A stretch of DNA of 64,000 nucleotides from Escherichia coli. Lineage in GTDB: Bacteria > Pseudomonadota > Gammaproteobacteria > Enterobacterales > Enterobacteriaceae. Positions 43,066 to 44,904 of the stretch are shown piece by piece (within the stretch, counting starts at the first letter, position 1; every line of letters starts with the position of its first letter). The stretch is from the NCBI RefSeq assembly GCF_001677475.2, contig NZ_CP015229.1; one strand, given 5' to 3'. The translations under genes were made by a program, and so were the position numbers. The notes under the pieces were generated by a model, which was not told where the DNA came from, ran no database searches, and saw nothing but the letters and a program-made list of their open reading frames with translations.

Positions 43066-43334
43066 CCGTCAAGCAAACTGTTGAAATCACAAACAAGCTG
43101 GGCATGCATGCCCGGCCTGCAATGAAGCTGTTTGAATTAATGCAGGGTTTTGACGCTGAAGTGCTGTTACGTAATGACGAAGGCACCGAGGCTGAAGCCA
43201 ACAGCGTTATTGCACTGCTGATGCTGGATTCTGCCAAAGGACGGCAGATTGAAGTTGAAGCCACCGGTCCACAGGAAGAGGAAGCACTGGCCGCCGTTAT
43301 CGCCCTCTTTAATTCTGGTTTTGATGAAGATTAA
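43062..43334 (+). CDS. npr: Phosphocarrier protein NPr/PtsO (90 aa)
   Basis: Translation [90 protein letters not shown]. Confidence 0.95.
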
Positions 43335-43479
43335 TCTTCATCACTTTGACATTCAAATCCCTTCAAGCTCCCCCGACAATAAGAAAAGCGCGTACTGAAA
43401 TCGTTCTCAATCAACGTCATTTGTACATTTTGTGCGCTTTTCACTTTCAGAAGAACCTTAAGAAAACCTTAAGAGGCAT

Positions 43480-43496
43480 TGTTTAGGTTTTGTTTA
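43480..43496 (+). promoter_or_regulatory. PhoP box (TGTTTA-N5-TGTTTA direct repeat) with downstream -10-like CATACT, upstream of yrbL
   Basis: Exact TGTTTAggtttTGTTTA at 43480..43496; -10-like hexamer at 43508..43513; yrbL ATG at 43547. Confidence 0.6.
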
Positions 43497-43546
43497 AGTT
43501 AATCGACCATACTGGAGATCGTCAGAAAATATTTCCAGGAGATGGC

Positions 43547-44179
43547 ATGATTCGCTTATCTGAACAAAGTCCCCTGGGCACCGGAAGACATCGGAAATGT
43601 TATGCGCATCCGGAAGATGCCCAACGCTGTATCAAGATTGTCTACCATCGTGGCGATGGTGGCGATAAAGAGATCCGCCGTGAGTTAAAGTATTACGCGC
43701 ATCTTGGTCGCCGGTTAAAAGACTGGAGTGGAATACCGCGCTATCACGGTACCGTTGAGACGGATTGCGGAACCGGTTATGTCTACGATGTGATTGCAGA
43801 TTTTGACGGCAAGCCCTCCATTACGCTGACCGAATTTGCTGAACAATGCCGTTACGAAGAAGACATTGCACAACTGCGCCAGTTACTGAAACAGCTGAAG
43901 CGTTATTTGCAGGATAACCGTATCGTGACGATGTCGCTGAAGCCGCAGAATATCCTCTGTCACCGCATCAGTGAGTCAGAGGTTATCCCCGTCGTCTGCG
44001 ACAACATTGGTGAAAGCACATTGATTCCACTGGCGACCTGGTCGAAGTGGTGTTGTCTGCGTAAGCAAGAGCGGTTATGGAAACGATTTATCGCCCAACC
44101 GGCGCTGGCTATTGCCCTGCAGAAAGATCTGCAACCTCGTGAAAGCAAAACGCTGGCCCTCACTTCGCGCGAAGCTTAA
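43547..44179 (+). CDS. yrbL: PhoP-regulon protein YrbL (210 aa)
   Basis: Translation [60 protein letters not shown]...; the track ORF start (43490) lies inside the PhoP box, so the downstream ATG is preferred. Confidence 0.88.
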
Positions 44180-44904
44180 TCCAGCTGGTGTTGTTGCATA
44201 AACGACTCACCGCCTAACTGATACATCTGCCGTAAAATCCACGCCTGACGGCTACGCACGTAGCCCGATGGCGCGGAGACTTTGAAACGAAGTGGATTAG
44301 GTAATACAGCTGCCAGTAATGCAGCTTCCGACCGGGTAAGTTTGCTCGCGGGTTTGTGGAAATAACGTTGTGCCGCAGCTTCGACGCCAAACACACCGTC
44401 GCCAAATTCGGCGATATTCAGGTAAACCGTCAGGATACGCTTTTTGCTCCAGACCGTTTCTATCCCCAGCGTTAATCCGGCTTCTAGCCCTTTTCGAACC
44501 CAGCTACGCCCATCCCATAAAAAGAGATTTTTGGCCGTCTGCTGAGAAATCGTTGATGCACCGCGAATACGGTTTTCATTGCGCTCGTTGTGCGCCAGGG
44601 CTTTCTCAATGGAAGCGACATCAAAGCCCCAGTGCTCAGGAAATTTCTGATCTTCTGCGGCAATCACCGCCAGTCCCATCCACGGCGAGATTTGATCCAT
44701 ACTGACCCAGTCAGAATGTGCCACGTAACGAAAATTGCCATGCAGCCAGGCGCTGACCTGTCGCTCGACCATTACCGCTGAGAAAGGAACAGGCGCAACG
44801 CTAAACAACGCAATGCCCCCGCCCCAGAAAACGGCGAGGACAACCATTAACCGCAGAAGAAAACGGCGAACGAAACTAAACACCGTTAAGCGGCTTTTAC
44901 TCAT
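44176..44904 (-). CDS. mtgA: Monofunctional peptidoglycan glycosyltransferase MtgA (242 aa)
   Basis: Translation [73 protein letters not shown]... Confidence 0.95.

Follow-up and report, generated by a model that had tools for sequence, protein, structure and literature searches.

The PhoP-activated, PmrA-repressed promoter of Escherichia coli yrbL, its start codon and a conserved upstream block

We conclude, with very little doubt, that the feature at 43480-43546 of the window (the whole 64-kb stretch of Escherichia coli DNA analysed here; the parts of the control region and yrbL are on the plus strand) is the PhoP-activated, PmrA-repressed low-Mg2+ promoter of yrbL, a core member of the PhoP regulon, and that the TTG codon inside its PhoP box is not a start codon. 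In the mechanism we propose, PhoQ would sense low Mg2+ or other known PhoQ signals, upon which a phosphorylated PhoP dimer would bind TGTTTA-N5-TGTTTA. This box would take the place of the -35 element, one helical turn (11 nt) upstream of the hexamer CATACT, and PhoP would recruit RNA polymerase to a promoter that is probably too weak otherwise, in a class II-type manner that we infer for yrbL. Transcription would begin a few nucleotides past CATACT and yield a leader of approximately 31 nt that carries AGGAG, and translation would proceed from the ATG at 43547. Phosphorylated PmrA (BasR) would bind CTTAAG-N5-CTTAAG, located 6 bp upstream on the same helical face, and repress the promoter, presumably through some form of interference with PhoP.

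The yrbL box, its -10 element and its repression by PmrA are already known, and the finding is correct but ordinary. Biologically, the PhoP promoter brings nothing new, and a conserved block further upstream is the sole forward-looking point of the region. Sequence, spacing, statistics, conservation, annotation and family assignment come from the present analysis, and PhoP binding and dependence, the Salmonella transcription start and PmrA repression come from the literature, which for the E. coli start and footprints means citing papers only.

The PhoP and PmrA boxes and the core promoter

The PhoP box (43480-43496; TGTTTAggtttTGTTTA) consists of two TGTTTA half-sites at 43480-85 and 43491-96, separated by the spacer ggttt at 43486-90, and overlaps the -35 position. 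It matches exactly the published direct-repeat consensus (T/G)GTTTA-N5-(T/G)GTTTA (PMC3335776, PMC5775216), so that the exact box placed at these coordinates by an earlier sequence-only reading is confirmed; the 19-mer around it, 43479-43497, reads tTGTTTAggtttTGTTTAa. In an alignment (A1) of 14 upstream regions from Escherichia, Citrobacter and Salmonella, obtained from a scan of species-representative genomes, the half-site cores are kept as (T/C)GTTTA and (G/A)TTTA. The pattern GTTTA...TTTA and the 11-nt gap that follows it are retained in Escherichia, Citrobacter, Salmonella and Superficieibacter (alignments A1 and A3), and the box is degenerate in Pluralibacter.

The -10 hexamer CATACT (43508-43513) lies 11 nt after the box and is invariant in all 14 sequences of A1, none of which has an indel between the two elements. 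A poor -35 hexamer, TAGGTT (43484-43489), is located inside the PhoP box and is separated from the -10 by an 18-nt spacer. No sigma-70 consensus promoter was detected in 43200-44300, which fits a promoter that depends on an activator. The promoter thus has the features of architecture I, namely a single direct box, 11-12 nt from the -10 and overlapping a poor -35. The sequence-only reading had recognised the architecture of PhoP-activated promoters in the position of CATACT, and the same values are tabulated for yrbL in the Salmonella literature (PMC3335776).

In that study (Zwir et al. 2012, PMC3335776), Salmonella yrbL is listed under architecture I with the single direct PhoP box TCGTTTAGGTTTTGTTTAA, 11 nt between box and the -10 CATACT, and a -35 TAGGTT with an 18-nt spacer. 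Phosphorylated PhoP protected the Salmonella yrbL promoter from DNase I, and S1 mapping revealed a single start, seen in the wild type at low Mg2+ only, with a -10 to +1 distance of 2 and an mRNA 5' leader of 32 nt (PMC3335776). The mapped Salmonella start lies after the -10, and no start upstream of 43480, which would have contradicted the sequence-only reading, was seen. Class II activation was demonstrated for mgtA and predicted for yrbL (PMC3335776). In Shigella flexneri, the predicted PhoP site of yrbL is a 19-mer identical to that of the window, a promoter fragment containing it was shifted by phosphorylated PhoP in EMSA, and deletion of phoPQ left yrbL expression at 0.02-fold, i.e. 50-fold lower (PMC5775216). 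E. coli yrbL has been used as a PhoP reporter and responds to PhoP induction, with a weak, noisy and low-sensitivity response (PMC13215669), and in Salmonella yrbL is the earliest but weakest among PhoP targets (PMC4196223). PhoP-dependent expression, which the sequence-only reading had named as a check on its proposal, is therefore on record for Salmonella, Shigella and E. coli (PMC3335776, PMC5775216, PMC13215669). A paper on AtoC mentions yrbL only within a list of response-regulator targets.

Judging from homology to the Salmonella S1 mapping, the E. coli transcript would start within 43514-43521. The distance from CATACT to the ATG is 33 nt in E. coli and 34 nt in Salmonella and Citrobacter amalonaticus, and together with the Salmonella values for the start and the leader this places the probable E. 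coli start near A43516, with a leader of approximately 31 nt. A start 2 nt past the -10 is unusually close, which points either to an error of a few nucleotides in the Salmonella mapping or to an imperfect assignment of the hexamer. We found no match to the E. coli yrbL start in the Kim 2012 supplement in either coordinate system (PMC3415461). The Shine-Dalgarno sequence AGGAG (43538-43542) ends 4 nt before the ATG; Escherichia and C. amalonaticus keep CCAGGAG, S. enterica keeps CCAGGA, CCA-GAG stands in three Citrobacter sp., and S. arizonae differs.

[quoted passage not shown] A scan of 43500-44179 for the elemental pause consensus GG-N6-TGYG returned no match. No intrinsic terminator was detected in the window between npr and yrbL (43335-43420), and in E. 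coli transcription may read through from the rpoN operon into yrbL. In Siccibacter and Pluralibacter, a canonical GC hairpin followed by a T-run is present between the two genes.

The PmrA/BasR box CTTAAG-aaaac-CTTAAG (43457-43473; CTTAAGaaaacCTTAAG), which the sequence-only reading did not mention, is located 6 bp upstream of the PhoP box. It is an exact match to the direct repeat YTTAAK-N5-YTTAAK, is conserved in A1, and has a second half-site that is invariant in 14 of 14 sequences. The box occurs once in the window, where 0.06 occurrences are expected at up to one mismatch. The four hexamers of the two boxes start at 43457, 43468, 43480 and 43491, that is, in steps of 11, 12 and 11 nt, which implies that both dimers would bind the same helical face with 6 bp between them. 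Repression of yrbL by PmrA (PMC3335776, PMC4196223) and its co-regulation by PhoP and PmrA (PMC2681069, PMC4196223) have been reported, and the two sites were described as lying approximately 24 bp apart in the E. coli and Salmonella yrbL promoters, in a "bi-fan" motif (PMC2681069). In Erwinia sp. and Cedecea colo the PmrA box reads CTTAAGgttttCTTAAG or CTTAAGgttttATTAAG, with a spacer that is the reverse complement of the E. coli spacer, which gives the box an inverted appearance; the Cedecea box is at -125, much more distant from the ATG.

A conserved block upstream of the boxes

A 21-bp block, TTGTACATTTtGTGCGCTTTT, with the core TGTAC-N5-GTGC, is located at 43421-43441 (K-12 coordinates 3348326-3348346), approximately 75-95 nt upstream of the inferred transcription start. 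It was absent from the sequence-only reading. No other invariant stretch of the intergenic region is as long as the block, which is more conserved than either the PmrA or the PhoP box; it is nearly invariant across Escherichia, Citrobacter and Salmonella, within flanks that cannot be aligned, and it is also kept by divergent E. coli alleles that differ in their flanks.

Further orthologues, gathered by protein search and contig look-ups, indicate how far this arrangement extends. S. enterica keeps the core and the order block-PmrA-PhoP, with one base fewer after the PmrA box (alignment A3). Superficieibacter keeps the core, with TGTAC placed 58 nt before the first PhoP hexamer, and both the core and the same 58 nt are found in a second yrbL copy of Enterobacter hormaechei, which encodes a 60% identical protein and lies beside neither npr nor mtgA. 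The block is partial in Siccibacter and Pluralibacter, one base further from the PmrA box in the former, and is absent in Erwinia sp. and Cedecea colo. Because the distance between block and npr varies, the block appears to belong to yrbL and to travel with it.

It is possible, although in our estimate somewhat short of an even chance, that a third DNA-binding protein uses this block and acts together with PhoP and PmrA from a fixed distance, which would add to the main explanation rather than replace it. The invariance of the block, its retention among divergent E. coli alleles, its movement with yrbL and the identical 58-nt distance in Superficieibacter and in the translocated Enterobacter copy all speak for such a protein, as does the lack of indels between block, boxes and -10 across the 14 sequences from Escherichia, Citrobacter and S. 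arizonae. On the other hand, the block is missing from the Erwinia sp. and Cedecea promoters, it may already have been described, and the Salmonella study, which describes a single PhoP box, makes no mention of the block (PMC3335776). The more specific proposal, which we regard as tentative and rather unlikely, is that the block is an undescribed operator for a third yrbL regulator, held 58 nt away from the PhoP box as part of a rigid module of approximately 95 bp that moves with the gene, even to the new Enterobacter location.

The block was also compared, informally and by eye, with known sites, and none of these comparisons assigned a binding protein to it, which counts against a third regulator; those with OmpR/RstA, Ada, marbox, CRP and sigma-54 sites each fail in at least one defining position. 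For an RstA box, the first half and the spacer fit and the second half fails, and as an OmpR half-site the block fails in a defining position or in spacing. An Ada box can be read on the minus strand as AAAGCGCA but lacks the AAT element; a marbox would have its second element off by 1 bp and unconserved in Pluralibacter. The spacing is wrong for CRP, a sigma-54 site would lack its GG, and the resemblance to a Fis site is too degenerate to be meaningful. A hairpin or terminator in which the block would form the 3' arm, paired with AAAAGCGCG (43383-91), was also rejected, as this partner is not the same even in K-12 and is missing elsewhere, and no terminator was found in the scan. An Rfam search of 43250-43650 returned sub-threshold eukaryotic noise only, and the 64-kb window holds no other copies of the block motif beyond chance. 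If the block does bind a further regulator, this might help to explain why yrbL differs from other PhoP targets, being early and weak in Salmonella and noisy and insensitive in E. coli.

The yrbL start codon and locus

The mechanical list of open reading frames gives yrbL as 43490-44179, a frame of 229 aa with a TTG start. This TTG precedes the ATG at 43547 by 19 codons and lies inside the region of the second PhoP half-site, and the sequence-only reading had already argued that the listed start falls within the box and that the ATG is the true one. Both points hold: the TTG is just the first start-type codon after a stop, and the ATG is the start annotated in K-12 and in strain 042 and is invariant in the 14 orthologues of A1. 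The TTG start is an artefact of a rule that opens a frame at the first ATG, GTG or TTG following a stop, and was called because no stop codon happens to intervene before the ATG.

The 19-codon extension (43490-43546) is spurious and non-coding, as indicated by the lack of conservation of the TTG, by stop codons in orthologues and by the mapped mRNA start, since the extension lies upstream of the PhoP-dependent start mapped in Salmonella (PMC3335776). One could suppose that the TTG is a real alternative start, giving a 229-aa YrbL isoform (which would contain MFKLIDHTGDRQKIFPGDG) from transcripts that read through from npr; the frame is indeed open from 43490 to 43547, and with no intrinsic terminator detected between npr and yrbL, read-through RNA over the TTG is conceivable. 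We nevertheless consider this very improbable. Within E. coli itself, the O157:H7 and EC28 alleles have TTC instead of this codon, and Citrobacter, Escherichia sp. MOD1 and Salmonella have TTC or TTA in its place (A1). In E. albertii, C. amalonaticus and S. arizonae, the extension is closed by in-frame stops located 15, 15 and 4 codons before the ATG; no start codon stands between stop and ATG, which leaves the ATG as the sole possible start. Three Citrobacter strains carry compensating single-base indels within the extension, and the distance from CATACT to the ATG differs by one base in Salmonella and C. amalonaticus. Furthermore, the TTG has no Shine-Dalgarno sequence at a usable distance, the Pfam model begins at residue 2 of the 210-aa protein, and RefSeq uses the ATG. 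For annotation, this means that the rule of taking the first start-type codon misplaces the start of yrbL by 19 codons and puts it within a transcription-factor site, and the ATG at 43547 should be used.

The downstream gene had been named yrbL in the sequence-only reading, and sequence match, Pfam PF10707 and RefSeq all agree with that name. The yrbL CDS spans 43547-44179 (210 aa plus stop), as supported by Pfam, RefSeq coordinates and the protein cluster, and the gene order in the window, from sequence match and RefSeq annotation, is rapZ-npr-yrbL/mtgA-elbB. The segment 43400-43561 is 100% identical to K-12 MG1655, and within it the K-12 coordinate is obtained by adding 3,304,905 to the window position; the RefSeq yrbL start in strain 042 and in K-12 (b3207, 3348452) maps to the ATG at 43547. 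At the other end of the gene, yrbL and the convergent mtgA overlap by 4 nt at 44176-44179, with interlocked stop codons, and the pair is among the "excludon" candidates based on RNA-seq (PMC12288877).

The yrbL control module was found in 5425 of 5426 complete E. coli genomes. The gene is unusually polymorphic within the species: over 951 bp (43300-44250), 353 of the 5425 genomes are at least 99% identical to the window and 5072 are at 95-99%, and the protein of the species-representative E. coli genome is only 93% identical to the YrbL of the window. Some E. coli yrbL promoter alleles are closer to E. whittamii than to K-12, a pattern that suggests recombination at the promoter. Two strains carry insertion sequences in the region. 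In E. coli Ecol_AZ161, the IS66-family element ISEc23 is inserted directly after CATAC of the -10 (about position 2598 of the locus examined, L027) and splits the yrbL control region from the downstream DNA, and in strain 2009C-3133 an IS1 lies inside the npr-yrbL-mtgA region.

The 210-aa protein matches Pfam PF10707 (YrbL-PhoP_reg) with E = 2e-67 over residues 2-185 and model positions 1-184 of 185, with a score of 226.9 bits for a gathering cut-off of 31.5, which places it in the family. A protein 100% identical to it heads a cluster of 2869 sequences named YrbL, E. coli. YrbL is a PhoP-regulated kinase-like protein. A 420-bp contig of Tannerella forsythia ATCC 43037 (contig135) encodes a fragment 99% identical to the YrbL of the window and is almost certainly E. 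coli contamination of that assembly. More distant YrbL homologues, of approximately 50% identity, were found on three metagenome contigs (L022, L023 and L024), 14-25 nt after dnaE and next to O-antigen ligase-like, glycosyltransferase and Kdo-kinase-family genes, with a second YrbL-family gene on L023. The PhoP box is absent at these three yrbL loci, and their gene neighbourhood gives a hint that the family may have a kinase role related to LPS/LOS.

Chance expectation and comparison with known systems

The exact PhoP pattern occurs once in the 64-kb window. None of 100 dinucleotide-preserving shuffles contained any match, and a composition model with independent, identically distributed bases predicts 0.006 exact copies per 64 kb. 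When up to two mismatches are allowed, 3 matches are found and 3.9 are expected, so that the relaxed pattern is no rarer than chance would give, and therefore the informative points are only the exact match, where it stands with respect to the -10 and the gene, and how it is conserved. That the repeat matches the PhoP consensus by accident, as AT-rich intergenic DNA with no regulatory role, would be in keeping with the chance-level count of relaxed matches, but has next to no credibility given the rarity of the exact form, its correct placement and orientation with respect to an invariant -10, its conservation across genera, and the PhoP binding and dependence published for identical or orthologous sequence (PMC3335776, PMC5775216).

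As a PhoP-activated, PmrA-repressed promoter, the yrbL control region can be set beside several known systems. With the architecture I promoters (mgtA, phoP, slyB, pmrD and yrbL; PMC3335776) it shares the single direct box, which overlaps a poor -35 and stands one helical turn upstream of the -10. The pmrD promoter, which is likewise PhoP-activated, PmrA-repressed and part of a bi-fan motif (PMC2681069), also has its PmrA box upstream of its PhoP box, although the separation from start to start is approximately 38 bp in Salmonella pmrD and approximately 23 bp in yrbL as measured here (approximately 24 bp in PMC2681069). The YrbL protein of the window matches PF10707, a family with a protein kinase-like fold, over its full length, and we saw no difference from it. 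The closest comparison is with Salmonella yrbL itself, from which the E. coli promoter departs in its first hexamer (TGTTTA in E. coli, CGTTTA in Salmonella) and in the spacing to the ATG (33 nt as against 34 nt). The feature in the window is the E. coli orthologue of this listed architecture I member, and nothing of substance differs between the two.
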